Shown: in pieces, positions 11,722 through 61,700 of the stretch
Position numbering within the stretch: position 1 is the first letter of the stretch
Layout: every line of letters starts with the position of its first letter
Source: a virus
Lineage: Duplodnaviria; Heunggongvirae; Uroviricota; Caudoviricetes
Strand: one strand, 5' to 3'
Virus record (IMG/VR): IMGVR_UViG_3300014205_006828
Coordinates: 1 to 64,000 of that record
DNA length: 64,000 bases
The notes under the pieces: generated by a model
What the model saw: the letters and a program-made list of their open reading frames with translations, nothing else
The model's database searches: none
Told to the model about the DNA's origin: nothing
Position numbers and translations under genes: made by a program

Positions 11722-12693
11722 ATGCCCAAAAAGATAATTGTTATCACTAAGAAAACCTCATATTCCAAGTATATTCAAGACCAGGATGATGAAGGATCTA
11801 GAGAGCTGTTGCGCACCCAAAACCCAGCTGTTGCGTTCTGGCAATCCTCACACAATAGCCACATGAGAACCCTCAATCGCGTTGTTGAGGAGATTCAAAA
11901 GCAGAACATAGTCTGTACGGTTATTGATTCTAAGTCATTTGTAGTCGATCCTGATGATGTGGCAATGGTAATTTCTGTTGGCGGAGATGGTACTCTTCTC
12001 TCAGCCTCACACAGCGTAAATGGCACACTACCAATCCTGGGAGTGAACTCCGATCCAGAAACTAGCATTGGCTTCTTCTGCTACTCCACCGCAGATACAT
12101 TCCTCAAACATCTATTATTAGCCTTAGATAGTATGTGTATTGAGACAGAATTAACTCGGATGAGTGTGCGAAAAAATGGCAAATTCGTAGCTAATAGAAT
12201 ACTTAACGACGTTCTATTCTGTCATACAAATCCAGCCGCCACCTCGAACTACATCATTCAACTCATGAACCATAGTACGCGCACAATGGCTGCCGTACAG
12301 TGTGGAACTGAAACGAAGCTGACGGCCGATAAAGTACTTCCTCTCTCGACTCAAGAAACGCAGCGATCCAGTGGTATTTGGGTAGGGCCTGCGGCAGGGA
12401 GTACGGCTGCCAGGCGTTCAGCTGGTGCGAGCCCAATGAATCTATCATCTAAAGACTTGCAATTAAGGGTAAGAGAGTTGTACTATAGGCCATCCTCTCA
12501 GCCTGGTCGTATTGAATTGACCGCAGCCCCAGGGCAATTCATTAAGGTTATTAGCAAAATGGATAGTGCTGCTATGTATCTTGATGGTGACTATAGTGTT
12601 ATTCCGGTTGGTCTGGGAGATGAGATTAACTTTGAAATGTCAGATGAATCTCTACATCTCTTAGGTAAACCAAATGTACTTTGTGGGAAATAA
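11722..12693 (+). CDS. nadK: NAD+ kinase (NadK/PpnK family)
   Basis: VISVGGDGTLLSASH is the GGDGT signature of NAD kinases. It is followed by NDVLF in the expected position. Confidence 0.65.
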   Translation: MPKKIIVITKKTSYSKYIQDQDDEGSRELLRTQNPAVAFWQSSHNSHMRTLNRVVEEIQKQNIVCTVIDSKSFVVDPDDVAMVISVGGDGTLLSASHSVNGTLPILGVNSDPETSIGFFCYSTADTFLKHLLLALDSMCIETELTRMSVRKNGKFVANRILNDVLFCHTNPAATSNYIIQLMNHSTRTMAAVQCGTETKLTADKVLPLSTQETQRSSGIWVGPAAGSTAARRSAGASPMNLSSKDLQLRVRELYYRPSSQPGRIELTAAPGQFIKVISKMDSAAMYLDGDYSVIPVGLGDEINFEMSDESLHLLGKPNVLCGK

Positions 12694-15566: not shown

Positions 15567-16340
15567 TTGGTGAGTATGTTTAATATAGTTGGTATCTCTA
15601 CTTGTAAGGGCCGCCTAAACCACATACAACGAACAGCTACGGCTTTTATTGAATCCACTCCCAATGACGTTGGATATTTAGTGGTTGATTATGAATGCCC
15701 GGAACACACTGGAGAATGGGTTCGGAAGAATCTAGATCCTAGCAGGGCTGAAGCGTTGGTGATGAGGGCAAAGCCAGGTGTTTTCCATAAAACTATTGCA
15801 CTAAATGCCGGATCTAAATACGCAATCAGTAAAATGTGTGCTGAATACCTGCTGTACTTCGATGCTGATACTATCATTCGCCCTGGTTTCATCAACCAAA
15901 TATCTCCATTGCTTCGAAAGGATCGGTTCATTATTGCGGAACCAACTGGCGAAGAAGATCTCACTGGCTTACTTGTCATTCACAAGAGCATTTTCACGGT
16001 ATCTGGTGGATTTGAGGAATCGTTCAGAAGCTGGGGCGCAGAGGATTTGGAGTTTCGACTTAGGTTATTCGCTAAACATCATTGCCAGTTTGATGTTATT
16101 AGTTGCGAAAACCTAGTCCCAATTCACCATGATAATAATCTCCGAGTCAAATTCTACACGGACAAGGATATTGATTTCAGCAACAAACGTAATTTTCATC
16201 GTTTGTTGCAAATGTACCAGGCATATACTGGAAATAGTCTTACGCTAAAAGGATTGAATGATAGTAAACTTCCGGATAAGGATGCTCTTTTTAAATTACT
16301 ATCACTTCATCCGAGAATAGCTTCCAAGGACATAGAATGA
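15567..16340 (+). CDS. Glycosyltransferase (GT2/GT7-like, beta-1,4-galactosyltransferase-type fold)
   Basis: DxD motif in YLLYFDADTIIRPGF, and GGFEESFRSWGAEDLEFRLRL resembling the WGGEDDD region. Confidence 0.55.
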   Translation: MVSMFNIVGISTCKGRLNHIQRTATAFIESTPNDVGYLVVDYECPEHTGEWVRKNLDPSRAEALVMRAKPGVFHKTIALNAGSKYAISKMCAEYLLYFDADTIIRPGFINQISPLLRKDRFIIAEPTGEEDLTGLLVIHKSIFTVSGGFEESFRSWGAEDLEFRLRLFAKHHCQFDVISCENLVPIHHDNNLRVKFYTDKDIDFSNKRNFHRLLQMYQAYTGNSLTLKGLNDSKLPDKDALFKLLSLHPRIASKDIE

Positions 16341-17263: not shown

Positions 17264-18475
17264 ATGAACAGGATTGATAGGGTCAAAGAAACATTTCCAG
17301 ACCATTACGAGGCTGCGCTGAAGGTTGAAGACCCAAGTGGTAAGAAACACAAGTACCTCTTATGGATCGCAAACCAACTGGCAAGCGGGCATAACTCTCC
17401 AGACATTTCCCAAACACTCAAGTTCTTCGATGATAATCCTGACAAGTTCATCGTTAAGGATATTCATAAATACAAGGACTTGAAGGATCTTGAAGATCTG
17501 GTCAAGGGCTTTGGTCTTTCAAATCGGCAAGCCAAAGCTCAGGACAAAGATGGTTCTGATAAGATCTATGAAGATGATCACTTGATGGTTATCCGAATAG
17601 ATGACAAACCGGCAATGGTTCTCTATGGAGCAAACACCCGCTGGTGTACGACCATGAAGGATCATCCCTACTATGAAGATTACGTTTCTCAAGGTAATGA
17701 CTTCTACATAGTAATCAGGAAAGATCAGAATTCACTGGCTTCTTCGAAATATGCTATTGTGAGAAATGGCTTGCTTGGGTTCAGCGTGTACGATGCTCAG
17801 GACAACTTAGCCAGGTCATTCTCCGAAGCGGAAGAAGACCGGCTTCGAGATGCTATAAAAGTTATCATCTCTGATCGGCCACCGAAGAACTATCTGCGCA
17901 TGGTTGTTAGCGGAAAGATCCCTGGGCCAGAAGCTGCTGAATGGCTGAAGCAACAGACAAATGTGACGCAAGATTACGTAGAAACAAAGCGTCCTGATTT
18001 GAAGTTTGTCTATCGCTCTGTTGAGGAGCTGATCCCGATATTCCATAACCAGTGGAACAGAAAGTATCTCGGATCAATTGGCTATGAAAGACTTGTAGCC
18101 ATGGTCGAAAAGCTGAAAGACCTGAAAGATAAAGAGAACATTACTCTAAAGCTAGAGGTCTTGAAACTTCTCAAGGAAGAAGAAGACCGATTACTGTTGG
18201 CCAAGGACAGTAGTCCGCAGGTGCGCGCCAAGGTTGTAGAAGGTGTAGGGCCTGCAAAAGCTAAGGAGTTCTTTGCGGACAATGCACTTGCTGTGTTTAG
18301 AGTTGCGGCACGTAAGGTTGATGTGCAGTTCTTGCTTGACTTCGCCGCTAAGTCCAAGTCTTCCAGAAAGAAGAAGGTGGTCAACGAAGTAATTGCCGAG
18401 AGAATCTCCCAAGAGAAGGTTCGTGAGTTCGTATTGAATCAACCACCAGAAGTGCTCAGGGAACTGATGGTTTGA
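17264..18475 (+). CDS. Hypothetical protein with a C-terminal HEAT/armadillo-like helical repeat region
   Basis: 403 aa. The C-terminal LLAKDSSPQVRAKVVEGV...ALAVFRVAARKVDVQFLLDFAA looks like HEAT repeats. Confidence 0.4.
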   Translation: MNRIDRVKETFPDHYEAALKVEDPSGKKHKYLLWIANQLASGHNSPDISQTLKFFDDNPDKFIVKDIHKYKDLKDLEDLVKGFGLSNRQAKAQDKDGSDKIYEDDHLMVIRIDDKPAMVLYGANTRWCTTMKDHPYYEDYVSQGNDFYIVIRKDQNSLASSKYAIVRNGLLGFSVYDAQDNLARSFSEAEEDRLRDAIKVIISDRPPKNYLRMVVSGKIPGPEAAEWLKQQTNVTQDYVETKRPDLKFVYRSVEELIPIFHNQWNRKYLGSIGYERLVAMVEKLKDLKDKENITLKLEVLKLLKEEEDRLLLAKDSSPQVRAKVVEGVGPAKAKEFFADNALAVFRVAARKVDVQFLLDFAAKSKSSRKKKVVNEVIAERISQEKVREFVLNQPPEVLRELMV

Positions 18476-18539: not shown

Positions 18540-20207
18540 ATGAAGAGACTATCGCGGTGGGCGATTGCTGGCATTGGGCTCGTTGCAGTGTGGTTCACAA
18601 TCCCGCTGGGCCTGTCCGCCTACGTCAATCGAAAGTACGCACCAGACATCCACGTAGGACTCATCAGCATCGTTGGAATTGACTGTGCTCGGGTCCGCAA
18701 TGTCCAAATTTCTAAACCAACAGTCAATGGGGTCATCAACTCTGCTGTGGTTTGCTATCGCGGAAAGACTGTTGACATCAATGGTGGCAAGCTAAATGTC
18801 ACAATAGAGAAATCTTCTGGTAAAAAATCAGATGGAGATCCTACTCATGGATTTGCCATTACCGCTAAAGGTCTTGATGTCCATCTTTCCAAAGGTGATA
18901 TTTCGGCTGATATATCTGGTGCAACGATAAACCAGAATACAGTATGTGCCGGTAAGGTAATTTTCTTTCATCCAAAAGCAGACGCCGTAGTTTTCAATCC
19001 ATGCTTTGATCGAAAATCTCATAGCGTGATGGCGTCTAATGGGACAATATCTCCAAAGATCGAAGTTAAAGGACATAAGGTTGAGGAAATTTCCTTTACT
19101 AGTCTCTTCAAAGCTACAAAGACAGAGGTGTCTGTTGGGGAGATAAAGTACGAAGATACTGTTGCGTCAAACATCTACGCAATACGCCAGAATGATTTTG
19201 TATCGCTGAGCATTGGATCTCTTGCGGCATCTCACAAGAGATTGTTCAGCCGCCCTTTGACTATCAGAAATATCACGATAACAAACATATCTGTAGCAGA
19301 TCCTTTATTAAGTAAAGCTATGATAATTGTTGGGGATAAGGTTACTTTTATTGCCGATATCGATAAGAAGAGGATGTCTGGTAAGTATGCTTGCCAAAGC
19401 TGGCTTGATGTTGTTCCAGAAGAGCTGAAGATTGGCCCAATTTCACAGATGCGTATCAAGGGAACGTTTGGGTTTGATCTTCAACTCAGCCCAATATCCC
19501 TGAAGATCAATAGCAACTGCAGTATCGATGGACCGGTGCCGCAGTTCATCGCCGATCTGCGGGAGCCCTTCAAATACACCGCGTATCACCCAGATGGTAC
19601 CCCGTTCGAGAGAACGTCAGGGCCTGGAACAAATGACTGGATTCCGTTGGATTTCGTGGATAACATGGCCACAGCGCTAACGATTACGGAAGACCCTGGA
19701 TTTTGGCACCATCGTGGTATAATCCCTCAGGCTCTAGAGAACTCTCTCAAGGACAATATGCGCCTCGGAAAGTTCTTTAGGGGCGGCAGCACTATAACGA
19801 TGCAGCTCGCCAAAAACCTCTGGTTGACCCGCAATAAGTCTCTGGGTCGCAAGTTGCAAGAAGGCATTCTCACCATAGCTCTTGAGAGTGGACTTTCCAA
19901 AGAGAAAATTCTTGAACTGTATTTGAACGTTGTGGAGTTTGGACCAAACACTTATGGCATTGGCCCTGGGTGCGCTAAATTCCTCAAGAAATATCCCGGA
20001 GAGATTAATATCTCCGAAGCTCTATACATGGCAACTAGATTACCATCACCTAATAAAGCCCATTCATACGAAGCTAATAAAGGATTCATAAAAAAGCTTA
20101 TAGCTATTGGAGTGTCTTCCGGCAAGATTTCAGAGGATGAATTGGCCACTGAACTCCAAGCTGAGCAAGCTCAAGAGATAGATGAATCTGAAGATGAAGA
20201 TGATTAA
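18540..20207 (+). CDS. Membrane-anchored protein with a C-terminal family-51 peptidoglycan glycosyltransferase (transglycosylase) domain
   Basis: N-terminal TM. C-terminal TITEDPGFWHHRGI..., FFRGGSTITMQLAKNLWL and RKLQEGILTIALESGLSKEKILELYLNVVEFG match the GT51 motifs (EDxxFxxHxG; GxSTITQQ; RKxxE). The tail is acidic. Confidence 0.65.
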   Translation: MKRLSRWAIAGIGLVAVWFTIPLGLSAYVNRKYAPDIHVGLISIVGIDCARVRNVQISKPTVNGVINSAVVCYRGKTVDINGGKLNVTIEKSSGKKSDGDPTHGFAITAKGLDVHLSKGDISADISGATINQNTVCAGKVIFFHPKADAVVFNPCFDRKSHSVMASNGTISPKIEVKGHKVEEISFTSLFKATKTEVSVGEIKYEDTVASNIYAIRQNDFVSLSIGSLAASHKRLFSRPLTIRNITITNISVADPLLSKAMIIVGDKVTFIADIDKKRMSGKYACQSWLDVVPEELKIGPISQMRIKGTFGFDLQLSPISLKINSNCSIDGPVPQFIADLREPFKYTAYHPDGTPFERTSGPGTNDWIPLDFVDNMATALTITEDPGFWHHRGIIPQALENSLKDNMRLGKFFRGGSTITMQLAKNLWLTRNKSLGRKLQEGILTIALESGLSKEKILELYLNVVEFGPNTYGIGPGCAKFLKKYPGEINISEALYMATRLPSPNKAHSYEANKGFIKKLIAIGVSSGKISEDELATELQAEQAQEIDESEDEDD

Positions 20208-20238: not shown

Positions 20239-20679
20239 ATGAACACCAGCGATTTAACTGTCAGCATCCCACTTCACTCTCAAACAGATCTGATCACCAA
20301 CTCTTCCACTACAATCTACACCTACAGCGATGCTTCTCCTGCTGCGTGTCGAGAAATGATCGAGGCCATATTCAAAGCCTTCGAAATCGACAAGAAGTGC
20401 GATGACGTCTTCCATATCGTTTTGATGATGGAGAATGAAGAGAACTACGAATACTGGTTAGAGGATCAAGGTCACGACATTGAAGGGGACCTTAGCGAAC
20501 TACTTAATAAGGTTCGTAGTGGTAAGGTTGAGAAACCAAAGTGGATGTTTGATGCCGAAAAGTCTCGTCATCAAGGCACCGTACTCCATATCTCAGCCAA
20601 ATCCAAGAAGTACGTTGCTGTAGCTAATCTCATTAAGAAGTTCCTATATTCAACTGAGACCAAAGAAATCTATGACTAG
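20239..20679 (+). CDS. Hypothetical protein, tandem paralog 1
   Basis: DLITNSSTTIYTYSDASPAACREMIEAIFKAF..KKCDDVF is shared with the next gene. Confidence 0.5.
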   Translation: MNTSDLTVSIPLHSQTDLITNSSTTIYTYSDASPAACREMIEAIFKAFEIDKKCDDVFHIVLMMENEENYEYWLEDQGHDIEGDLSELLNKVRSGKVEKPKWMFDAEKSRHQGTVLHISAKSKKYVAVANLIKKFLYSTETKEIYD

Positions 20680-20702
20680 CAAGTGAGAGGAGAGGAATTC
20701 AA

Positions 20703-21248
20703 ATGATCACAATACAGTTTCATTCAATTACAGATCTTATAACAAACTCATCCACAACCCTCTTCACCTATAGCGATGCATCCCCGCAGGCTTGTGAGGA
20801 GATGATTGACGAAATCTTCAAAACACTCGGCGTTGATAAGAAGTGCAGCGATGTCTTCCGACTCACTGTCTTAGCCGAAGACTCCTACACCTACACTGAG
20901 TGGAAAGATCGTCAAGCAGAAGCGGAAGATGATGATGACGACCTCGATGAAGACGAGGATGATGGGGAGGAAGAAGATGAAGAAGATGAGAATGAGGATG
21001 AGGATGAGGATGAGGATGAGGATGAGGATGAGGAGGTAAGCGACATCGATAAACTGATCGAGGACATCATCCAAGGACGCGCTGAGAAGCCAAATTGGAT
21101 GACGGAAGCAGAGCAAGACGAAAGCGATGAGGGTTACACCCCAAGTACCAAACTTTACATCGTAGCCAAATCTCCAAAGTTCGAGAAGTTGGCGGAGCTG
21201 ATTGTCAACTTCCTATATTCCACCCACACAGATACTGGGGCTGATTGA
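20703..21248 (+). CDS. Hypothetical protein, tandem paralog 2, with an inserted acidic (D/E) low-complexity tract
   Basis: DLITNSSTTLFTYSDASPQACEEMIDEIFKTL..KKCSDVF. It contains a (GAGGAT)n-encoded ED repeat. Confidence 0.5.
   Translation: MITIQFHSITDLITNSSTTLFTYSDASPQACEEMIDEIFKTLGVDKKCSDVFRLTVLAEDSYTYTEWKDRQAEAEDDDDDLDEDEDDGEEEDEEDENEDEDEDEDEDEDEEVSDIDKLIEDIIQGRAEKPNWMTEAEQDESDEGYTPSTKLYIVAKSPKFEKLAELIVNFLYSTHTDTGAD
20992..21039 (+). repeat. Hexanucleotide microsatellite (GAGGAT)x7-8 inside CDS 20703-21248
   Basis: gaggatgaggatgaggatgaggatgaggatgaggatgagga encodes (ED)n. Confidence 0.8.
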
Positions 21249-35403: not shown

Positions 35404-35996
35404 TTGTATACTAACTTAATTCCGCTATTAGGATCTTCGGACAGGATAATCAATCTTTGTTTGAAATCGAACTCCAGATCGTTTTTCAGATCAGTATACT
35501 CTTTTTTCCTATCGGTTGACTTCTCAATCAGCCTGGAAAGAGATCCTCGTGGATCAAGGTATGTTCCGTATAGATATTGGATTCTCTGTTTGGAATTGGC
35601 CTCTTGCACTTCTCGTAGGGCTTGTGCTTTGAATTTCTCAACATTACTTTCTATTACTGTGCTTTTTAGAAGCCCACCATTAATGGAAAGGAACATATCT
35701 TCTTCATACATAGATCCATATCCGGCATGAACATAGTTAAGAAGATTTCCCTTCCAAACATGAAGTTCTTGAGAAACCCAATCGGCAAAAAATGGGCCTT
35801 TACCCTTCATGACTCCGCCAACCACTCGATTGAGATATAGCTTGTTATCTACAATCTCCCACTCCCCAACGTACCCTCGATAGTTTGAGGTTTTCGTAGA
35901 CCAACCAGCTTCAGCCTTGTCATGGAGGCTTGGGTTGGATACCATCTCTAACTCCTCACCATCAATGATGAGGATTTCAGGTTGTTGCGCCGTCAT
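35400..35996 (-). CDS. Hypothetical protein
   Basis: 198-aa ORF. Confidence 0.4.
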   Translation of the reverse strand: MTAQQPEILIIDGEELEMVSNPSLHDKAEAGWSTKTSNYRGYVGEWEIVDNKLYLNRVVGGVMKGKGPFFADWVSQELHVWKGNLLNYVHAGYGSMYEEDMFLSINGGLLKSTVIESNVEKFKAQALREVQEANSKQRIQYLYGTYLDPRGSLSRLIEKSTDRKKEYTDLKNDLEFDFKQRLIILSEDPNSGIKLVYK

Positions 35997-36807
35997 CTTC
36001 CAATGCCTTCTTCAAGTTACTGTACAAGACGTCAGGATCGTTATCCGATAACCCGCTCATCTGGCCGTCATTCAACTCAATCAGAATCCATTCACCAGCG
36101 GCTGTCTTTGCCACATCAATCACGTAGTACGTTGGCGGCTCACTCAGCTCCGTATTCTGAATCTTATCAATGATAGCATTCAAGAACTCGCGCGGCACCT
36201 CATCTGGATTAATAGAAATACCCTCGGCGCGGATGTCATCCGAATGTGAACTCCAATAGAAGCCGCCGCTAAGTATCGTCTTCTTGTATACAAAAAACCT
36301 ATACTCTCTGGTAATTTGTAGTCCTTGAAGCCCGCTAGAAAGAACCTCAAGAGGCACGTACTTTCGAATGTAGATCTTCTGGTACTGAAGCATTGAATCA
36401 GCCATAAGCCGCCCATGCACTTCAATGGCCGCCTTCTTATCCTTGGCAAAACAGTGGGTATTCCAAAGGAACTTTTTGGAGTTTGTTTCGCCCTTTAATA
36501 CAAATGGACCATCAGTAGGAATGTTGTGAAGCTCATCCCATGTATGAGGAGTAAAAGAACTCAAATCCATATACCAATTACCAAGATCTGCAATATACCT
36601 ATGTTGCTCATAGGTATTAATCATCTTGCATCCAACAATATTTAGGTCACGTTCCTGTTCGAGATAAAACGGGAGGGCTGAAAACCTAGAAATTACTAAA
36701 TTGTCTCTAAGCAACATACGACTATCAACACAAGCAAAATACTTACGCACTACTTGTTCTTCTTGTCTCCAATCAATATCATTGCGAAACAAAATTACTG
36801 GTTTCAT
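35977..36807 (-). CDS. ATP-grasp fold enzyme (putative carboxylate-amine ligase)
   Basis: The C-terminal WILIELNDGQMSGLS resembles the ATP-grasp hhEhN..PG motif. Preceding beta-rich segments (YRFFVYKKTILSGG) fit the fold. Confidence 0.45.
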   Translation of the reverse strand: MKPVILFRNDIDWRQEEQVVRKYFACVDSRMLLRDNLVISRFSALPFYLEQERDLNIVGCKMINTYEQHRYIADLGNWYMDLSSFTPHTWDELHNIPTDGPFVLKGETNSKKFLWNTHCFAKDKKAAIEVHGRLMADSMLQYQKIYIRKYVPLEVLSSGLQGLQITREYRFFVYKKTILSGGFYWSSHSDDIRAEGISINPDEVPREFLNAIIDKIQNTELSEPPTYYVIDVAKTAAGEWILIELNDGQMSGLSDNDPDVLYSNLKKALEDDGATT

Positions 36808-38057: not shown

Positions 38058-38136
38058 GTCCCCAGACCAGGGCTCGCACCTGGATCGTCCCTAAACAATT
38101 AGGGGCTCTTTACAACTTGAGCTATCCGGGGGAAGT
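38058..38136 (-). tRNA. tRNA-like element with aberrant anticodon loop (6 nt) and atypical T-loop. Possible pseudo-tRNA or processed/edited tRNA
   Basis: Reverse complement folds as acceptor CCCCGGA/TCTGGGG, D-arm TAGCTCAAGTTGTAAAGAGC, stem CCCTA/TAGGG around ATTGTT, T-stem CCAGG-TGCGAGC-CCTGG. Confidence 0.35.
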
Positions 38137-42197: not shown

Positions 42198-42438
42198 CTC
42201 CTACTATTACCGTCTTTACAATCTTCGGAGCACCAATTAGTCCCCGAGGATTTACGACACCAACACCATTACACTCCAGCAATTGATACGCTATTAGGTC
42301 AGGAAGAACTACTGGCATAGGGCCTTTCCGCTCATGTCTCACTGGAGTGATTGGCGTCATCTCTAAAAGAATCTCTGATATTGGTTTCAGATCCTCATCA
42401 GTAATGTCAGGGTATCCTTGTCGCTTGATAGTTGTCAT
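42184..42438 (-). CDS. Hypothetical small protein
   Basis: 84-aa ORF. Confidence 0.3.
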   Translation of the reverse strand: MTTIKRQGYPDITDEDLKPISEILLEMTPITPVRHERKGPMPVVLPDLIAYQLLECNGVGVVNPRGLIGAPKIVKTVIVGDEDD

Positions 42439-44594
42439 AGCATTACATTGTGAGGATGCGACTCAGTCAGGCCAGCATTCGATATAACCACGAAATGAGG
42501 ATCGGCTTTCAAGTCAGCTAGATTCTTGGATCCTTGGTATGAACATCCACTCTTGATGCCCTCCACCAAACGCAGTACAACATCACGCACACTGCTTTTG
42601 TATGGAACGAGCGCAACGACACCTTCGACATGCTTTTGCTTGTGTGTTGAGCTGCCAGCGTAGCGCTTGAACTTCTTGCCTTGAAACTGGATGATTTCTC
42701 CTGGGGCTTCGTCTGTGCCGGCAAACAAGTTGCCAATCATCACAAGCTCCGCGAATGCCAGCGCCTTGACGCAATCACCTGCGCTCTTAATTCCACCATC
42801 CGCAATGAACATCGGCCACTGATCATCTCTCATGCTGTAGTTGCCATCATTGCAGACAATATCCAGCGCACTGAGTTGTGGATATCCGTTGCCTGTTTCA
42901 ATGCGGGTAGTGCAGAGAGAATTGTGTACTATAGCGTTATCAGCAATAAAGCTATGTGTTTCACAATCAATCGTCAAATCAAATACCGACACCTCATCAT
43001 TTATATTTGTATACTCTAACAATTTAGATATTTGATAGTTGTCTATAACTCGTTTTTCTGCTGTGTTGTTTATTCTTGACACATAAGGCGTATTGAAATT
43101 TTCAATATTCGCACCTTTTAGATTTCCAGATGTCACTTTATCTTGCTGATTGTTTGGGAACACCTTGGTAAGAAGATATGTGACTATATTAAATAGTTCT
43201 ATTAGGTGAATTGATGTATTTTTGAAATTCTTTCTACCACCAGATTCTATACTACCATCCGAGTCCATCAAACCATCGTGTATGCCTTGTAAATACCCAA
43301 TATTATTTACAATGTATTCTGGTGGTAGATATTTCTCTGTTCTCTTTCCAAAACCAGATAAGAATTCCGCAAACGGTTTATGATACAAAGAACAAACAAT
43401 TATGTTTTCTTTAGCTTTAATTTTCAACGCCCTTCCTGTAAGGGTCTTGATACACTCCGCTAATCGATGTGCGATGTGAAGTTCATCAACTCCAAAATAC
43501 CAATGAATAGCTCCTGTATTAGTACGCCCGTTATTAACAATCATGGCGTGCCCATCTCCAAGGAAAGTCCCAAAAATATATCCTACCTCTATTGTTGGTT
43601 CAATGACAAAATCAACACTTACCTTAATTGAAGAATGCCCATTCCAGCCATCGCGTATCACAATTTCCTTTTTGAAACTATTCGGAAATTCAAACTCAAT
43701 ATTATTTGGCATTAGTAATGCAACTTTATTAATGTTGCCAATTTCTTGCCATTTTAGTTTGCTTTGTTTTGGTGTAGTTTTCGATTGCGTTTTTAGAGCC
43801 TTTGAATAACCAATACTTTCAAGTGTTGTTTTAGAAATACTACTTAAATCACCAATGAAATATTGATGATCAGGCGTTACATAAGTAGCTTTATATGAAA
43901 TAGAGTTGCGAATCTTAGATACCTTACGAATGCCGGTGCAAAATGCTTTCAGTACACTTTTCGGTTTGCCATCCATATTGATAATACGCTCGCCCGGTTT
44001 GATATCCTCAATGTTTTTATACAACCCATTAGACATTAATATTCTGGTACCAGCCCCAAAACAACCTGGCCCTACGCCAATTTTGATAATATCCGCACCA
44101 GCATTCCAGAGCAAAGAAGCTCCTTTGGCAGTTACTACATTCCCGGCAATAAGGAGAATGCCAGGAAATGTGGTGTGAACTGCCGATACGAACTCAGCCA
44201 CTTTGGTATGATCCCCATGAGCAACATCTACACAAATTATCTTACAACCAATTCTATTCAGTTCATGTATGAGGTCCAGATCTTTCGGCTTGATACCTAC
44301 TGAGGCACCAATCGCACCAGGAAATCCATGGGATGCTGCACGAGCTTGATCGTAGTTTGTGAACAGCTCTCCATAGTCATCGAAGCGGTGCAGTATGGCC
44401 AGACCTCCAAGTTCAGCGATTGTTTCTGCCATTTTTACATCTGTCACTGTTGCCATATTTGCACTGACAAAAGGTATCTTAAGTTCAATACCTTTTGGTA
44501 AAGAAACCGATAGATCAACCTCCTCCCTAGATCCAATCGAGCTGTGTTTTGGGATCAGAAGAACATCATCAAAAGTATAGCCTTGAGTGAACAT
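42435..44594 (-). CDS. guaC: GMP reductase / IMP dehydrogenase-family (CBS-less, GuaC-like) enzyme interrupted by a 381-aa LAGLIDADG intein
   Basis: Exteins: ...ICVDVAHGDH...AGNVVTAKGASLLWNAGADIIKIGVGPG | SLCTTRIETGNGYPQLSA...MFIADGG... matches the GuaC/IMPDH catalytic region (VGIGPGSVCTTR..GVGYPQLSAV). The insert begins with Cys and ends ..IVHN|S, and carries two LAGLIDADG blocks (FGTFLGDGHA; IHDGLMDSDGSI). Confidence 0.75.
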   Translation of the reverse strand: MFTQGYTFDDVLLIPKHSSIGSREEVDLSVSLPKGIELKIPFVSANMATVTDVKMAETIAELGGLAILHRFDDYGELFTNYDQARAASHGFPGAIGASVGIKPKDLDLIHELNRIGCKIICVDVAHGDHTKVAEFVSAVHTTFPGILLIAGNVVTAKGASLLWNAGADIIKIGVGPGCFGAGTRILMSNGLYKNIEDIKPGERIINMDGKPKSVLKAFCTGIRKVSKIRNSISYKATYVTPDHQYFIGDLSSISKTTLESIGYSKALKTQSKTTPKQSKLKWQEIGNINKVALLMPNNIEFEFPNSFKKEIVIRDGWNGHSSIKVSVDFVIEPTIEVGYIFGTFLGDGHAMIVNNGRTNTGAIHWYFGVDELHIAHRLAECIKTLTGRALKIKAKENIIVCSLYHKPFAEFLSGFGKRTEKYLPPEYIVNNIGYLQGIHDGLMDSDGSIESGGRKNFKNTSIHLIELFNIVTYLLTKVFPNNQQDKVTSGNLKGANIENFNTPYVSRINNTAEKRVIDNYQISKLLEYTNINDEVSVFDLTIDCETHSFIADNAIVHNSLCTTRIETGNGYPQLSALDIVCNDGNYSMRDDQWPMFIADGGIKSAGDCVKALAFAELVMIGNLFAGTDEAPGEIIQFQGKKFKRYAGSSTHKQKHVEGVVALVPYKSSVRDVVLRLVEGIKSGCSYQGSKNLADLKADPHFVVISNAGLTESHPHNVML
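42921..44063 (-). mobile_element. Intein with LAGLIDADG homing-endonuclease domain, inserted 3 residues upstream of the catalytic Cys of the GuaC/IMPDH-like enzyme
   Basis: Splice junctions GVGPG/CFGAG... and ...AIVHN/SLCTTR. Codon coordinates were verified against the sequence. Confidence 0.7.
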
Positions 44595-45335: not shown

Positions 45336-45971
45336 TTAAGCCAAAGAAAGATGCTCTCGCATCGCTTTTGCCGCAGCCTCATCCGATTCGAATTTTGTAA
45401 TATCGAACAATATTCCTTTGTGAAATTCACTGCCCATGGCAATATTATCTTCCCTATCATCGAAGTATAGAGAGTTGTTTGGCCATCCATACTGAATTAG
45501 GAAGCTTTGATAATATAATCTCATAGGTTTCCTAGCTCCAACATCACAAGAGAAATGTTGAATACAATCCCTAAATATCTTACATTTTTCACGCACAAAT
45601 TTAGCATGATCAGGCCCGATGTTTGATAATAGGGCAACCTTATGCTTTTTAGCTATCAATTCATCAACTACATCAAGCATTGGTAATGATGGTGTGAATG
45701 TTTCCATCCATCTGTCATGAATCTCTTGCAATGTATGATAACTCAATGATTTGTTTAGTTGATAAAAGCTCTGCTTAATATCGTATAATCCAATTTCCTG
45801 AGAGTGTTGAAAGCTTCCACCCATGAACTCATACGCTTGAATAGTATCCTCAACTATCCTTTTACCTATTAATAGATCGAGTAATGGGCTTAGATCGAAG
45901 CGAAACAGAACATTACCAATATCGAATGCAATTTTCTTCTGGGGATTATACTGAAAGTAATCTTTCGTCAA
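45336..45971 (-). CDS. HAD-like hydrolase (variant motif I)
   Basis: IAFDIGNVLF (motif I), ALLSNIG (motif II), GARKP (Lys), FDDREDN (motif IV). Confidence 0.4.
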   Translation of the reverse strand: MTKDYFQYNPQKKIAFDIGNVLFRFDLSPLLDLLIGKRIVEDTIQAYEFMGGSFQHSQEIGLYDIKQSFYQLNKSLSYHTLQEIHDRWMETFTPSLPMLDVVDELIAKKHKVALLSNIGPDHAKFVREKCKIFRDCIQHFSCDVGARKPMRLYYQSFLIQYGWPNNSLYFDDREDNIAMGSEFHKGILFDITKFESDEAAAKAMREHLSLA

Positions 45972-46800
45972 GCTGCCTCCACTTCTGTATAGATAGAGAT
46001 GGATGAGATACCGGGCGCTCGACCTGTCTCTTAATGAAGTTCATATTTGTTGATCTGCCGATATTGGTCGAAACACCATACCACTGCAACAATTGCGCAT
46101 TTATAACTTGCTCAATCTCAGATGGATTTGGGCTGATGTAAAGAGGTTTCCCAGTATACAAACAATCAGATACAAAACTAGTCTCTCCTGTTGTAACTAA
46201 ACTACCTACAGGGATCAATCTCTGAAGATTTGATATGTCAATATCTTCTGTAGTACATTCTTTAGGTACTATTGAATATGGACGTACCCATTCAAATCCG
46301 CGCTTCAATATTGGCCTTGCAGAAATATCACATAACGGAGAATACACTAGATAAGCATCGCCACGCGGCAGCGATTCAAGATACACTTTAGTGTTATCCA
46401 TTATCTTGGTGGTCAGCTCCTTCTTCTCATGCTCCATCCCAGTAATTTGAAGCATGGGGCTGCAATACCACAATGGAACTTCCAGCACCTTCGCCACCAT
46501 CGCGGTGAAGAACTCGCAATCGCTAATCACCAATTCCGGAACCCACTCCAGAAGATCGTTGATGATCATATCGGCAAGGAAATGGTCTACCGGCGGCCCA
46601 GCTACACCATACTTATCCTTGAAGTAGTTCTTCTCACACCTGACAGCTAGCGCATCCAGGCACCAATCAATAGACTGAAGATATCGGCTATTTCGGTAGT
46701 ACGCAGCGATGCGAACCTCATGCTCCTGTGTGTGGTGCAGGAACCGAGACAGCATAATATTGGAACCTATTGTCTTGCTTGCTCCAAACAAAATCTTCAT
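45946..46800 (-). CDS. Hypothetical protein, possibly a GT-B glycosyltransferase-like
   Basis: N-terminal KILFGASKTIGSNIMLS...VPELVISDCEFFTAMVAKVLEVPLWYCSP resembles the GT1/MurG N-terminal half. Confidence 0.3.
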   Translation of the reverse strand: MKILFGASKTIGSNIMLSRFLHHTQEHEVRIAAYYRNSRYLQSIDWCLDALAVRCEKNYFKDKYGVAGPPVDHFLADMIINDLLEWVPELVISDCEFFTAMVAKVLEVPLWYCSPMLQITGMEHEKKELTTKIMDNTKVYLESLPRGDAYLVYSPLCDISARPILKRGFEWVRPYSIVPKECTTEDIDISNLQRLIPVGSLVTTGETSFVSDCLYTGKPLYISPNPSEIEQVINAQLLQWYGVSTNIGRSTNMNFIKRQVERPVSHPSLSIQKWRQLDERLLSV

Positions 46801-49390: not shown

Positions 49391-50692
49391 TTACCTAAGA
49401 TTTAAAACGAATTTCTTTTGTCCACAATCCCAAATTTTAACTAATCCATTGTCATATCCAGAATTTCCTGGATATTTCATTCTATGGAATGTGTTTTTGA
49501 AATCTGTCCACTTGAAACTTACATGATTTGAAGCTTCAACAAATCCAATATTTACAAGGGAAGATCCTGTGCCATATCTACAATCAACAAAACTTATTAT
49601 TTTTTTTGGATTATAGTCACAGGCAACCCTTTTTAATAATTTACTAAAACCACCAACAACCAATGTATCTATTTTGTTTGCAAATCTAGATATTTCAACA
49701 AATTCTTTTTTGTGAATAATTTGCATACACGCGACAATATCACCATCAAACACCAGAGAGTATATCTTGCCTGTGCCCTTAGACATCAAATGATTATTAG
49801 CGAACCAACCACAATCATCAGGCAACACATTAACAGCACACTTCCTAGCAAATAGTTTGCTGTTTATTATATTCAGCTTTGCGCGTATGATAGATTTGAC
49901 AATGTTTGTTTTTTGAAGAATTTCATCACCCCTAAAAAACAAAGATGTATATCCATATAAATAATACGATGCTTGTTTATTTAGGTGATAAGACCTATCT
50001 TTGATGTAAAGATCGGAGTGATGTTTTAAACCATCTGATTCTATAATTAGATTACCAAGTCTAAAATCTGGTCTATATGATGTACCTGGCAATTGCTTAT
50101 CATACACAAAATTCACACCAAGATCATTTAAGATATTTTCAATAACAAATTCTATATCTGTTTTAGATTTATTCCATTTAAGGGCAGAATCAACACCAAC
50201 TGATTTTATCAACTCAAGAAATTTTGAATAACTAAAATTAGGCTCATAACCATCAAAAATATTTCTAGCAGATAACCCGTTTAGATCGTAACTAATCCCT
50301 CTGGCTATTTTTGTGTTATTAATTTTCGCAATCACACATTCTGCTTTGGATGGATGATCTACTCCAAACCTTTTCAAATTAGTATTTTTGATTTTGTCTT
50401 GTATATCTTTATTTAATAGAGGCGTAGATGCTCCAAATCTCTCTATACAGGTATTGGCGCGTTTATCTTTGGTACTTTGTTTTCTAGACCCTAGTACTTT
50501 GTTAGCCGCTGAACGTTTCGGATGTCGCCTCTCCCCATAGAGAACTTTGGAATAAGTTCCATAAAATTTACCATACTCACTATCCTCAAATTCCGCAATT
50601 GAATGTGCAGATGTATAAGATAGCAAATCAAGATAAGGGAATTTTTCTTTTACTTTAATTCTAGCTTCTTCTAACGTTTGTCTTCGCGCCAT
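49391..50692 (-). CDS. Hypothetical protein with a Vsr/PD-(D/E)xK-like nuclease-like segment. Possible homing endonuclease
   Basis: YRPDFRLGNLIIESDGLKHH resembles the endonuclease core (rpDF...iEvDG..wH). The rest is unassigned. Confidence 0.3.
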   Translation of the reverse strand: MARRQTLEEARIKVKEKFPYLDLLSYTSAHSIAEFEDSEYGKFYGTYSKVLYGERRHPKRSAANKVLGSRKQSTKDKRANTCIERFGASTPLLNKDIQDKIKNTNLKRFGVDHPSKAECVIAKINNTKIARGISYDLNGLSARNIFDGYEPNFSYSKFLELIKSVGVDSALKWNKSKTDIEFVIENILNDLGVNFVYDKQLPGTSYRPDFRLGNLIIESDGLKHHSDLYIKDRSYHLNKQASYYLYGYTSLFFRGDEILQKTNIVKSIIRAKLNIINSKLFARKCAVNVLPDDCGWFANNHLMSKGTGKIYSLVFDGDIVACMQIIHKKEFVEISRFANKIDTLVVGGFSKLLKRVACDYNPKKIISFVDCRYGTGSSLVNIGFVEASNHVSFKWTDFKNTFHRMKYPGNSGYDNGLVKIWDCGQKKFVLNLR

Positions 50693-53207: not shown

Positions 53208-53981
53208 CTAATTCCCAACATAACTAATACCGCGTTCTCTTAAAATTCTCCAGGGCATGAAATTATCCGCTGTCATTTTGGGCGTCTTTAGGATCTTTGG
53301 AATTGGACGTGGAACAATTCCATTCACAATGTCTTCATCGAAACTACCAAGATCCTGAAAATCTACCTGCCAAAGAACTCTCAGCTCTTCATCAGTACAT
53401 GGCCAAGTATGTTTGTTACCACTAAATCTTTGATAACAGAAGTTCTCGGGGGGAAGCTCTACACAAACCCTTCTATCAGCGGCCATCATTCGACACCAAG
53501 AGTCATCTTCACCCCATTGCGCTACATTCGGGAAGTCAAGTGCAGAAGAAATTCTACCAGTTAATGTTGGGCCATGAAAGACGAACTTAGCATCCTTAGA
53601 TTCAGCGAACCAGAGAATGTTTTCTGTATTACGGATGTAGAGGGATTTTGAGCCGGCGTAGTCTGCATTTGTTTTTACCAAAGAAGATATTTTAGTTAGA
53701 TATCCTGGGCCGTAGTAATCATCAGCATCACATTTAGCAAACCAAGAGTCATCCTTGGCAATTTCACGAAGCCAATGAAGCGCGGCTGTTATGTATTGCC
53801 CAACCCCAGGATCGCTTTGAATAATAGATACTTTCTCTGGTAATTCAAAGCACGAACCAAGCCCCTTCCCATTCTCGACGATGAGTAATCTTTTGTCAGT
53901 ATAAGTTTGGCGCGCAAAGTTACCTAGAACGTTAGGTAACCAACGCGGATCGTGAAGGCCGGATACCATCCATATTGCCAT
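53208..53981 (-). CDS. Glycosyltransferase family 2-like
   Basis: FARQTYTDKRLLIVENG (GT2 N-terminal motif), CDADDYY (DxD), QWGEDDSW. Confidence 0.5.
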   Translation of the reverse strand: MAIWMVSGLHDPRWLPNVLGNFARQTYTDKRLLIVENGKGLGSCFELPEKVSIIQSDPGVGQYITAALHWLREIAKDDSWFAKCDADDYYGPGYLTKISSLVKTNADYAGSKSLYIRNTENILWFAESKDAKFVFHGPTLTGRISSALDFPNVAQWGEDDSWCRMMAADRRVCVELPPENFCYQRFSGNKHTWPCTDEELRVLWQVDFQDLGSFDEDIVNGIVPRPIPKILKTPKMTADNFMPWRILRERGISYVGN

Positions 53982-58397: not shown

Positions 58398-58766
58398 TTA
58401 CTCTTTGGTATCAAATACGCTCCAGGTATTTATCACCATCTCAAAGAAATGTCGCTTGCTCAGGGTTCTCGCCTTATTATCTTCTCGCAAGATAAATTTT
58501 GGTTTGTTCCATTTACCAAGCTGAGTGTCATTATGATAGATTGTAAATGCCCTATCTCCATCATCAATGATTTCTATCTCTAATTTACCTAACAAATCCC
58601 GAAGTAGGCATTTCTGTTTTACCGTCAATAATATATCAGGCCAAACGTCATCTAACGGAACTCCGACTTGTTCAAGGACGCCTTTCAGAAAAAGGTTTCT
58701 TTCTTCCTCTTCGACTGATTTGGCGTCCTCTCTATCTAGGTAAACTGATCTGTACATTAACCACAC
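58398..58766 (-). CDS. Hypothetical protein
   Basis: 122-aa ORF. Confidence 0.35.
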   Translation of the reverse strand: MWLMYRSVYLDREDAKSVEEEERNLFLKGVLEQVGVPLDDVWPDILLTVKQKCLLRDLLGKLEIEIIDDGDRAFTIYHNDTQLGKWNKPKFILREDNKARTLSKRHFFEMVINTWSVFDTKE

Positions 58767-61700
58767 TTACCATAATTACAATCAACACAAGTAAAACACG
58801 GATCTAGTTTTATATTTTTACCGCCACATTCTGGACAAATATTATCAACCTTATTATCAGATAAATATTTCTTCAAAATCCTTGCTAGTACTTTATTAAT
58901 GTCAGTAACATAACCGTCTTTGCTTAGTTGATCACATATAAAGCGAATTGGAACAGAGTGGCGCAGTGACATTGAAATCAATCTAGTAGCCCAAGCCGAA
59001 GATGCGTCATCGAGCATATCCACGATATTTCCCGTTCCATTAACGGAGAGTATTTCGCCATTAATTTCAAGGCAATATTCCCCGCGCTTCCTCTTTACAA
59101 TCTTGCCGGTTTGGCCATTTTTGACATCCAGATTCTCGGCCGGACCAGCAAAAACTTCGTATGGTTTATTATCATGTAATCCAATAATAACAGCCCACTT
59201 TACACCATCAACCTTAGCCGTATGAATATTACAAGGCAATTCTTTTGGTCTCTTTGGTGCCTCGCGTTCCTTAGGCTTATCATCTACAGCCTCCAGAACA
59301 GCCGTCATTGTTCCATTGCGGTATGTGGTAACACCCTTTATACCAGACTTCCAAGCATCAAAGTATATATCCTTAAATGAGTCATATGGATAATCATTTG
59401 GAAGATTTATTGTTTTACTACTATTCATATCGACATATCTAGCGATAGCTTTTAACATGTCGATATGTTCGGAATGAGATAGTTCTTCGGAAGTGGCTAA
59501 TAACCCAAGATTTTTGCGGCGATCTATCTCTTCTTGACTAAAATGCTCTTTAATAAACAACCAGGCCCAATCCTGCACAACGCTCTTTTTGGTAAGGCCG
59601 CGATTCTTATCAACCTGATATTGAGACCCATTAAATTCTCCAATTAGGATATCGTCTGTACCAGCCTTTGACTTTTTTAACAACTCAGTCTCAAACCACT
59701 CTCCCTTAAAAACATCCGGAAAGTTGAACCCGCTCTTGCGAAGATCTGCCCGATCTCCCTCTGGTACAATTGCCCATCTGGCGTATTCTAGATTGAACAT
59801 AGGCTCAATACCACCAGACAATACTCCTGCGTAAATGCTCATATTGCCGGTTGGGGCATTTGCTGAGCGATGAGAATTTCTCATATACCCAATATCCTCT
59901 ACTTCGCGCTTTACTTTTTCGGATATTGGTAGTGTTTTCCACCAATACGAATTAAAATATTTCAGCTTATCAAATAATGGGAACGAACCCTTTTCTTGGC
60001 CAATTCGTGCAGACGCTAGGATCTCAGTTTCGGCCTTTGTCTTAAATATCTTGGTCACTAACTCAATAGACTCTTTTGATCCGTATCTCAATCCCAAAAT
60101 TGCCAGCAATGAACCAAGCCCAACAACACCAATACCAATTCGGCGCTTCTCTACCATTGAGATCTTATAATCATCAAGAGGAACGCGAGAAATATCATTA
60201 ATGTTATCAGAAAATCTGACGGCTATTTCAGAAGCTCGTTTAAATGTCTCAAAATCAAACTCAAAACCATCATCTGTTTCTTTGAGATACTTTACTAAAT
60301 TCAAAGACAACAACAGACACACCCCGGTTGACATAGACACCTCTCCGCATGGATTGGTTGTCACTATATTTTCTGCATACCCCAACGGGTTGTATTTGTT
60401 AGCGATATCTAAAAACAACACTCCTGGGTCATTTCTATTGTAGGTTGACTTCATGATATTGTCCCACAAATCACGAGCCTTGACAGTCTTGTATACTACA
60501 ATTGGTAAACCCCTAGATTTCCAATCTTCAATATCACCAGCCCATACTTGTTTATGCTCTGGAACATGAGTATTAGGAAATACCAAATCCCAATCTGTAT
60601 TGTTTTCGACAGCCTCCATAAATCCTCGGCAGATACCAACCGAAATATTAAACTTTGAAAGGCGTCCAGCAGTTTGCTTGGCAACAATAAAATCTTCAAT
60701 CTCTGGGTGCCAGCAATTGTGAATAAATACACCATTAGCTACAAAATTATGAAAATCAGGCACTGACATGTCAAAGACTTCTTCTTCACCATAATCTTCG
60801 ACAGTTATTACTTTATGATTTGTATCATCTGCTAGTTTTTGACTGAACTGATTCTTGAATCCATTCTGATAGTGATTTTTATATTCAACAGACCCTTTAT
60901 TCCATGGAACATTGGTTCCGTTTGATCTTCTAGATGCTATTCTCTTTTCTTGAATCAACCTAGATTTTTTTTCACCATACCATTCAATATCACTCTTCCC
61001 TTTTCTTGACTCTGCCAAATCCCTTTGATATTTTCTCAATACAAAATCATTAGATCTTCCATGTTCTTTGGCATGTTCAGATCGTGTTAATAATTCTATA
61101 TTATCAATGGAATTATTTGTTGTGTTACAATCTATATGATGAAGTTCTTCACTCTCTGGCAAAAACGCTCCATTGGCAATTTTACTTAAAGGATATCGCC
61201 CATATTTTAATTCGGCGACAGCTACATGTTCTGGTATACATTTTCTATACCCAGTAATTCCTAATTGTAAGTATTTGTTATAAATTCTCTTCCTAAGAGC
61301 AGAGATAGAATCTCCAAATACCAGTTTCCCAGCTTCTTTGTAAGAACCATTTGATAATAATATTTTATGATCTGGTGTGCAAATTATAAAGTCATCGTTA
61401 TCAAAGAAAACTTTGATAACTTTCCTTTTGCCATTACTCCATATTTTTGATGCTTGTCGTACAAAAACATTTCCTTTACAATCCGTGCAATAAACATATG
61501 GCGTCTTTCCAACCAAATCTTTAATAGACACTCTTCCGTTGATTGTAGAAATTAAAGAACTTCCAGCAATACACTCCAGAATGCCCATCTGAGCACCCTT
61601 GCGAATTTTCTTTTTTTCATCTGCTTTTTTACCAGATGACTTCTCCGAGCCCATTGTAATAACTTCTGAAGATTTATCCCAAAGTTCCATAAACTTCAAG

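Follow-up and report, generated by a model that had tools for sequence, protein, structure and literature searches.

A membrane-anchored GT51 peptidoglycan glycosyltransferase conserved in huge phages

Phages are known for destroying peptidoglycan or blocking its synthesis. Here we describe a phage gene whose product belongs to a family of enzymes that build this polymer. The gene lies in a 64,000-nucleotide stretch of viral DNA (Caudoviricetes; IMG/VR record IMGVR_UViG_3300014205_006828, positions 1 to 64,000), which as a whole we call the window, and is listed there as an open reading frame (ORF) of 555 amino acids (aa) with an ATG start at 18540-20207 on the + strand. The protein is a member of glycosyltransferase family 51 (GT51) by profile, by four motifs and by fold. 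It is not a singleton but one of a conserved family in huge phages, found on 46 IMG/VR contigs. We think it somewhat more probable than any other function that it is an active monofunctional lipid II polymerase, which would be put in the host inner membrane during infection and whose strands would be cross-linked by host transpeptidases; we place this reading slightly above even. The parts of the gene are collected in Table 1.

PF00912 (Transgly) was the sole Pfam family found in the protein (E=2.2e-38; 131.9 bits against a cut-off of 27), with a match over residues 364-514 that spans positions 13-164 of the 178 in the profile. The closest sequence match among solved structures is the glycosyltransferase (GT) domain of Aquifex penicillin-binding protein (PBP) 1a (PDB 2oqo; E=3e-29, 32% identity over the domain), with further matches to GT domains from other class A PBPs and from MtgA. 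The predicted fold of the domain is the helical head-plus-jaw. An initial annotation made from the letters of the window had proposed a biosynthetic-type GT51 domain in the C-terminal part of this protein; profile, PDB matches, predicted fold and conserved catalytic residues all bear this out, and the motifs it had listed are present in the translation. It had also set placement in a lytic transglycosylase (SLT) family beforehand as the finding that would count against a GT51. No SLT or lysozyme Pfam family matched at E<=1, on which ground we rejected a lytic transglycosylase or lysozyme identity, and a search of PHROGs with the protein returned no lysin family.

We assessed conservation in an alignment of 59 homologs with 30-87% identity, taking the definition of the GT51 motifs from PMC6053601. 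In motif 1, EDPGFWHHRG pairs with TEDrnFWhHfG of 2oqo, and E384 aligns with the catalytic Glu (TED of Aquifex PBP1a; E100 of S. aureus MtgA). This residue, whose conservation the initial annotation had named as a check on the EDPGFW motif, is invariant across all 59 homologs, as are D385, F388, H391 and G393. The motif 2 region reads GGSTITMQLAKN; here G415, G416, S417, T418 and Q422 are invariant, together with K425 and N426, which follow. In motif 3, RKLQE aligns with RKIKE of 2oqo and R437, K438 and E441 are invariant; in motif 4 the same holds for K454, E459, Y461 and N463. The invariant residues match those that line the GT51 cleft and the moenomycin and lipid II sites in published structures (PMC6053601, PMC4810414).

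The protein shares its catalytic motifs with the GT domains of class A PBPs (2oqo; E. coli PBP1b, 5fgz), but it is not one of them. In class A PBPs the GT domain is N-terminal, whereas in the phage protein it is C-terminal, and we rejected a class A PBP identity because neither the protein nor its surroundings hold a transpeptidase domain. The NCBIfam models for PBP1A, MtgA, PBP1C and PBP1B match the GT part alone, far under their whole-protein cut-offs. MtgA and its S. aureus counterpart SaMGT (PDB 3vmq, 3hzs) are proteins of about 240-270 aa in which the GT domain stands directly behind the anchor; the phage-encoded protein differs from MtgA by about 330 inserted residues, made up of a beta domain and a cysteine (Cys) module. 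An MtgA ortholog (TIGR02070) was likewise rejected, given a score of 114.9 bits against a cut-off of 182.65, the length of 555 aa and a separate branch in the tree.

The N terminus places these parts in the periplasm. A Kyte-Doolittle profile (19-residue window) peaks at 1.91 over residues 7-27, the sole hydrophobic segment of membrane-spanning length, and an N-terminal hydrophobic segment of this kind is present in 48 of the 59 homologs. The anchor, WAIAGIGLVAVWFTIPLGLSAYV, lies at 18558-18626, as verified by translation. Hydropathy and a helix in the predicted structure thus agree with the N-terminal membrane anchor of the initial annotation. K2, R3 and R6 stand ahead of the transmembrane segment and give an N-in topology, with the remainder of the protein periplasmic. 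The cysteines point the same way. In the 59-sequence alignment C285 and C327 occur together in 59/59 sequences (singly in none), C49 and C72 together in 36 (singly in none), and C136 and C155 together in 45 (singly in 1). Such joint gain and loss is a disulfide signature, and hence that of a periplasmic protein; C49-C72 and C136-C155 are predicted as two facultative pairs within the beta domain.

A confident AlphaFold2 (AF2) model built from the same alignment (predicted local distance difference test, pLDDT, 89.5; predicted template modeling score, pTM, 0.78) lays out a helix at residues 2-33, about 18 strands at 37-284, an alpha/beta module at 285-360 and a helical GT51 part at 374-553, of which 532-553 form the C-terminal helix. 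The module carries the invariant C285 and C327 and a conserved motif, F.Y.AY..DG.PF.R..GPGT, and aligns with that of a deltaproteobacterial homolog (hhalign probability 97.6%, E=3e-12). The acidic tail is also found in phage and bacterial homologs.

Table 1. Features of the GT51 gene, in window coordinates
Feature	Position	Strand	Basis
Complete gene, membrane-anchored monofunctional GT51 protein, 555 aa	18540..20207	+	ORF list, AF2 model
Signal-anchor (transmembrane) helix, residues 7-29, preceded by K2/R3/R6	18558..18626	+	Hydropathy, model, translation
All-beta domain, residues 37-284, ~18 antiparallel strands, curved	18648..19391	+	Predicted fold like lipid-conduit proteins
Small alpha/beta Cys module, residues 285-365, joins beta domain to GT51	19392..19634	+	Invariant columns, hhalign
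GT51 peptidoglycan glycosyltransferase domain, residues 366-530	19635..20129	+	
GT51 motif 1 EDPGFWHHRG, residues 384-393	19689..19718	+	Translation, alignment to 2oqo
GT51 motif 2 GGSTITMQ	19782..19805	+	Translation, invariant columns
GT51 motif 3 RKLQE; E441 is the second conserved glutamate	19848..19862	+	Translation, alignment to 2oqo
GT51 motif 4 KEKILELYLN	19899..19928	+	Translation, invariant columns
C-terminal helix and acidic tail (13 D/E among final 25 residues)	20130..20204	+	Model

These results bear on a proposal that the fold has been repurposed, so that the protein does not polymerize but binds or cleaves glycan strands as a virion- or lysis-associated factor for penetrating the wall. 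Wall-degrading enzymes are common in phages, and the head subdomain of GT51 distantly resembles lambda lysozyme (PMC4810414). Yet all polymerase-specific motifs are invariant, those of the jaw region included, and no SLT or lysozyme profile matches. An N-in anchor and disulfides suit a periplasmic enzyme of the inner membrane rather than a part of the virion, and no structural or lysis genes surround the gene in the 34 loci that we compared. Wall-degrading phage enzymes such as lambda R, phiKZ gp144 and endolysins of the T4 lysozyme type act on the same polymer with the opposite chemistry; unlike them, the GT51 protein has polymerase motifs and a jaw, is anchored in the membrane and lies outside any lysis or virion module. 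We therefore disfavor the virion-associated glycan-binding or glycan-cleaving module that the initial annotation had offered as one option, and consider a repurposed fold improbable.

About 330 aa separate the anchor from the GT51 domain. The initial annotation had called this region, which it put at about 300 aa, unknown. That description holds as far as Pfam is concerned: residues 1-353 match nothing, and the AsmA, DUF748, DUF3971 and TamB models gave no match at E<=10 either. A profile of the N-terminal region also found no sequence match to solved structures in the PDB. The region is no orphan, however, as all of it is homologous to the N-terminal region of longer bacterial GT51 proteins. 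In a search with the N-terminal profile against 1.84 billion representative sequences we recovered 277 proteins, practically all of them GT51 fusions of 500-680 aa, and the region thus occurs essentially only as a partner of this GT51 branch. Giant proteins (1,800-6,900 aa) that also matched are adhesins with cadherin or Ig repeats; we rejected them as relatives, since the matches are driven by the repeats.

The predicted structure of the region offers a lead to its role. Fold matches of the modeled beta domain are to Lpt, BLTP1, Vps13 and TamB, and a structure search of BFVD gave significant matches only to giant-virus proteins annotated as 'Chorein N-terminal domain' (E=5e-8 to 2e-6), over the beta region. 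Match scores are moderate and generic beta-barrels score only slightly below the lipid-conduit folds, so that the likeness of this curved all-beta domain to lipid-conduit proteins (Lpt, AsmA/TamB, Vps13/BLTP) is a supported lead and not proof. DUF748 is classed with AsmA and TamB, and an N-terminal inner-membrane anchor is a feature of TamB and AsmA (PMC4494059). The phage protein has the layout of AsmA-like proteins, an anchor (residues 7-29) and then a periplasmic beta region (about 18 strands, 37-284). Among 17 long bacterial homologs, sub-threshold matches to DUF748 appear at the N terminus of 6 and to AsmA in 2, the best at 33.5 bits (cut-off 50) and 22.6 bits (cut-off 29.8), respectively. 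We do not file the protein as an AsmA-like member, because its N-terminal half fails the sequence-profile test for that group. Compared with the known conduits (AsmA, TamB, YhdP, DUF748, Vps13, Atg2 and BLTP1; LptC, LptA and the N-terminal domain of LptD), it is far shorter than the envelope-spanning members, ends in an enzyme domain on the distal side and has no sequence link to the members with solved structures.

Should the beta domain be a true lipid conduit, the protein would be a bridge-type polymerase, with a groove to hold or transport the polyprenyl tail, either that of lipid II or that of the chain under synthesis. Its GT51 domain would then act away from the surface of the inner membrane, or would couple wall synthesis to the outer membrane, a way of making peptidoglycan that is not described for MtgA or class A PBPs. 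The modeled matches to Lpt, BLTP1, Vps13 and TamB, the sub-threshold DUF748/AsmA matches in 6/17 long homologs, the near-exclusive fusion of the region to GT51 and purifying selection on the beta domain (see below) are all in keeping with such an arrangement, which we nevertheless regard as unlikely. If it were true, it would define a previously unrecognized type of polymerase in both bacteria and huge phages: lipid II or a lipid-linked strand would be lifted from the inner membrane, and strand synthesis would take place at sacculus level or be aligned with the outer membrane. With a trimmed version, huge phages would build or reinforce wall material on a schedule of their own, independent of the host elongasome and divisome. 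More generally, the beta domain may bind or guide a polyprenyl lipid, or may space and position the enzyme.

More than 120 full-length metagenomic homologs of about 550 aa, 31-87% identical, were found, many of them on contigs of 200-513 kb. We calculated the ratio of nonsynonymous to synonymous substitution rates (dN/dS) for the whole gene and for its parts, and give in brackets the values against two 87%-identical relatives. The ratio is 0.09-0.15 (0.13-0.15) for the whole gene, 0.02-0.04 (0.025-0.037) for the GT51 domain, 0.14-0.21 (0.17-0.21) for the beta domain and 0.05-0.15 (0.11-0.15) for the Cys module. The low values in both halves of the protein show that both are kept by selection within the phage lineage.

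Relatives with the same order of parts are found in bacteria. These uncharacterized long-N-terminus GT51 proteins, which are 630-820 aa long and chromosomal, come from Bacteroidota, Chlorobi, Oligoflexales and Myxococcota/'Deltaproteobacteria' (for example, ORFs L023:6993-8963, on chromosome OY969556.1, and L009:6801-9191). Like the phage protein, they consist of an anchor, a beta region, a Cys module with the F.Y.AY..DG...GPGT motif, a GT51 domain and an acidic tail. Aligned with hhalign, the phage N-terminal profile and 17 of the long bacterial proteins match along 366 columns that reach from the anchor as far as the GPGT motif (probability 99.9%, E=1e-34), and the phage region shows large deletions relative to its bacterial homologs. 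The phage proteins are correspondingly shorter, at about 505-600 aa, with the deletions of the beta region on the phage side. One Bacteroidetes homolog lies on a complete chromosome among housekeeping genes (deformylase, RuvX, ComEC, TrkA), and we take the bacterial genes to be genuinely cellular on this ground. No NCBIfam model names a family for the bacterial homologs, and their gene neighborhood was uninformative.

In a neighbor-joining tree of the GT51 domain (without bootstraps), all the proteins of about 550 aa form a single clade. It falls inside the group with a long N terminus and a C-terminal GT51, adjoins the Myxococcota/'Deltaproteobacteria' versions and lies apart from MtgA and the class A PBPs; the bacterial long-N-terminus proteins make up its sister and outer groups. 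A fragment assigned to a 'Parcubacteria' metagenome-assembled genome (L008, on a 4-kb contig) is also nested in the phage clade and probably represents phage DNA that was mis-binned. The gene is of bacterial ancestry; in the simplest history that these sequences suggest, huge phages acquired it once from a bacterium, then kept it for long and shortened it.

The gene resides in phages. The window is collinear with a 391,957-bp IMG/VR viral contig (L003), with which it shares 12 flanking ORFs at 47-89% identity and on which the GT51 counterpart is 69% identical. In a profile scan of IMG/VR, 46 viral contigs proved to carry a relative, and over 20 of these measure 200-529 kb. The window has 14 tRNA genes scattered between 3314 and 38131, singly or paired between small ORFs. 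It also encodes a tRNA nucleotidyltransferase, a radical-SAM protein, an M24 peptidase, RNase T-like exonucleases and a fragment of a DnaB-like helicase, and most of its ORFs have no annotation. Synteny with L003, the tRNA genes and the intein-interrupted genes for ribonucleotide reductase (RNR) and IMP dehydrogenase (IMPDH) uphold the earlier description of the genome as phage-like.

Phage-family neighbors occur as well. In one subclade the gene directly upstream of GT51 encodes a full-length phrog_2426 VWA-domain protein (about 790 aa, E=2e-184). It is present at L090:7562-9913 and at 9 other phage loci, is the commonest neighbor although absent from the window, and is 36-38% identical to a protein that is conserved in Ackermannviridae-type myophages (hosts Serratia, Klebsiella, Dickeya and Salmonella).

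Could the gene nonetheless be cellular, on a mis-binned or chimeric contig, or be a recent passenger without function? An identical protein (P0001; NCBI MCK9567882.1) is filed under 'Candidatus Pacearchaeota archaeon', on a contig of 463,377 bp, and no capsid or terminase gene lies within the 64-kb window. An archaeon without peptidoglycan, however, could not use a GT51, and a passenger would not show a 30-87% span of identity with strong purifying selection. The synteny with viral contigs, the occurrence of the family on 46 of them, the phage-family neighbors and a content typical of huge phages (scattered tRNA genes, inteins in RNR and IMPDH, mostly orphan ORFs) also speak against a cellular origin of the contig, which we consider very improbable. 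On the strength of the collinearity, the 46 viral contigs and the phage-family neighbors, we assign the contig to a huge tailed phage and regard its archaeal label as a binning error: most likely, the 463 kb are those of a huge phage that was taken for an archaeon with a small genome.

The initial annotation had remarked that a GT51 is unusual for a phage, and this holds among catalogued phages (BFVD, INPHARED and the literature). No viral protein in BFVD matches the GT51 domain, and a megablast of 20 kb against deposited phages found no close DNA relative. By tblastn, INPHARED holds no full-length homolog and gave matches to the GT51 domain only. We did not accept these matches (H1-H30) as convincing phage genes, as they lie mostly on bacterial contigs, in short fragments or in dubious records. 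The Salmonella records AFYI01000003 and AGRM01000003 and the 'Acinetobacter phage MD-2021a' contigs (mrcB, mtgA) are bacterial assemblies or fragments within INPHARED; the mtgA of 'Microcystis phage MaAM05' adjoins glyS and gatD, and the PBP of a freshwater 'Bacteriophage sp.' adjoins a LysE transporter and a fimbrial chaperone. Neighbors of such cellular type point to cellular DNA in those records. In the literature (jumbo-phage reviews, a huge-phage survey and keyword searches) we found neither a phage GT51 nor an architecture that joins an AsmA-like region to GT51, a provisional result given incomplete coverage. Provisionally, then, a known enzyme family appears here with an architecture not described before and in genomes where it was not expected, and recurs across huge phages.

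The gene always stands alone on the 46 IMG/VR contigs, with no transpeptidase nearby. A tblastn search with four PBP transpeptidase domains found none in 928 kb (the window and 47 loci), while the GT domain, as positive control, matched 48/48 subjects. The surroundings are tRNA, nucleotide-metabolism, replication and auxiliary genes, in a long co-directional block. With neither a transpeptidase nor lysis or virion genes close by, the enzyme would work without a nearby phage cross-linker and would be no part of a lysis or virion module. Between the window and two distant relatives (L085, 513 kb; L086, 458 kb) the GT51 gene is the only gene in common. A scan for promoters and terminators around the gene found none above shuffled expectation.

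We propose the following course of events. A bacterial GT51 gene would have been captured by the phages from which a large group of huge phages descends, and retained since. During infection, the signal anchor would insert the protein into the inner membrane of a diderm (Gram-negative-type) host, so that a disulfide-stabilized part made up of beta domain, Cys module and GT51 comes to lie in the periplasm, where it would polymerize host lipid II to glycan strands by the chemistry usual for GT51. E384 would act as the base on the 4-OH of the acceptor GlcNAc, and E441, K438 and R437 would handle the pyrophosphate leaving group. Since the phage supplies no transpeptidase nearby, host transpeptidases would have to cross-link the product. 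As for the benefit, strand synthesis under phage control would most likely keep the sacculus intact and let it expand during the long replication cycle of a very large phage, at a time of takeover of host gene expression.

An active GT51 could also serve sabotage or exclusion. By unregulated polymerization of lipid II to uncross-linked strands, the enzyme would then drain the pool of lipid II and undecaprenyl-phosphate, which would halt growth and division of the host and starve synthesis of O-antigen or capsule; or else it would thicken or alter the wall. In both cases competitor phages could not adsorb or penetrate, a form of the superinfection exclusion that the initial annotation had raised beside remodeling of host wall synthesis. 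The evidence for an active periplasmic GT51 serves this alternative equally. No transpeptidase is encoded nearby, which leaves the enzyme uncoupled from a cross-linker of its own, and the gene has takeover and auxiliary genes for neighbors, not partners in wall synthesis. The missing transpeptidase is not diagnostic, however, because monofunctional GT51 enzymes and SEDS polymerases normally use separate transpeptidases of the host. No known exclusion genes are linked to the gene, and nothing distinguishes sabotage from a role in maintenance. We regard it as unlikely overall, if the most plausible of the alternatives.

Several points weigh against an active polymerase that maintains the envelope. 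(i) Motif 2 carries M throughout the family where most GT51 enzymes have the first Q. (ii) Four of the five GT51 motifs are present, and the classical fifth is not recognizable. This motif, in the last head helix, is classically R-K/R-x-x-V-L; the region aligned with it reads KGFIKKLIAIGVSSGKI, in which G528 alone is nearly invariant, and the model has a helix at 511-526 without the classical residues. (iii) The catalytic competence of the enzyme is a prediction from conservation. (iv) Bacterial relatives of the same architecture are themselves uncharacterized, so that no function can be transferred from them. (v) ORF clustering across 34 loci (±10 kb) revealed no universally conserved neighbor and hence none that favors a particular role. 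(vi) A conventional polymerase needs the jaw of its GT51 domain at the inner membrane beside the anchor, but here the jaw may lie at the opposite end of the beta domain. Finally, upkeep or expansion of the envelope is one of several roles that would fit an active enzyme.

The neighboring ORFs at 17264-18475 and 20239-21248 gave no match in Pfam, in PHROGs with a function or in the PDB. Directly downstream of GT51 stand two small tandem paralogs on the + strand (20239-20679 and 20703-21248; 37% identity, E=7e-37), the second with an inserted run of about 40 D/E residues; they occur in the 87%-identical relatives and are absent from the syntenic contig L003. A Shine-Dalgarno (SD)-like tetramer lies at -20 to -4 of 13 of 38 ORF starts in the window, against a background of 14%, and the GT51 gene has none. 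Such sparse sites may point to a host that makes little use of SD sequences, for instance one of the Bacteroidota.

Elsewhere in the window, a 916-aa ORF (5426-8176, +) matches the shoulder of Major Vault Protein (MVP; PF11978, E=5e-27) and the vault repeat (PF17795, E=2e-8) and has no PHROG match; archaeal Borg elements have also been reported to encode MVP-like proteins (bioRxiv 10.1101/2024.11.05.622173). Auxiliary genes encode an NAD kinase (11722-12693), a GT2/GT7C-like glycosyltransferase (15567-16340), an R2K ATP-grasp protein (35977-36807), a GT1-like glycosyltransferase (45946-46800) and a weak match to GT2 (53208-53981), and the phage thus has several sugar-transfer enzymes besides GT51. 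The large subunit of RNR (1127 aa; 58757-62140, -) has an insertion of HNH endonuclease/intein type at about residues 190-470, the IMPDH/GMP reductase gene (42435-44594, -) is split by an intein with Hint and intein-splicing domains, and a free-standing ORF at 49391-50692 resembles a homing endonuclease. The tRNA genes include 2 for tRNA-Met and 3 for tRNA-Thr, as well as an odd ARAGORN call with a two-base anticodon at 38058-38131; Rfam supports 10 of the 14 calls.

A wall polymerase that selection has kept in dozens of huge phages suggests positive control over construction of the envelope, which would be a new class of host manipulation, and huge phages probably steer wall synthesis in the cells they infect. 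The uncharacterized bacterial branch of GT51, with its lipid-conduit-like domain, bears on how lipid II is presented and on how the diderm envelope is coordinated. As GT51 is the target of an antibiotic (moenomycin), the compact, disulfide-stabilized phage version could also be a handy experimental handle.

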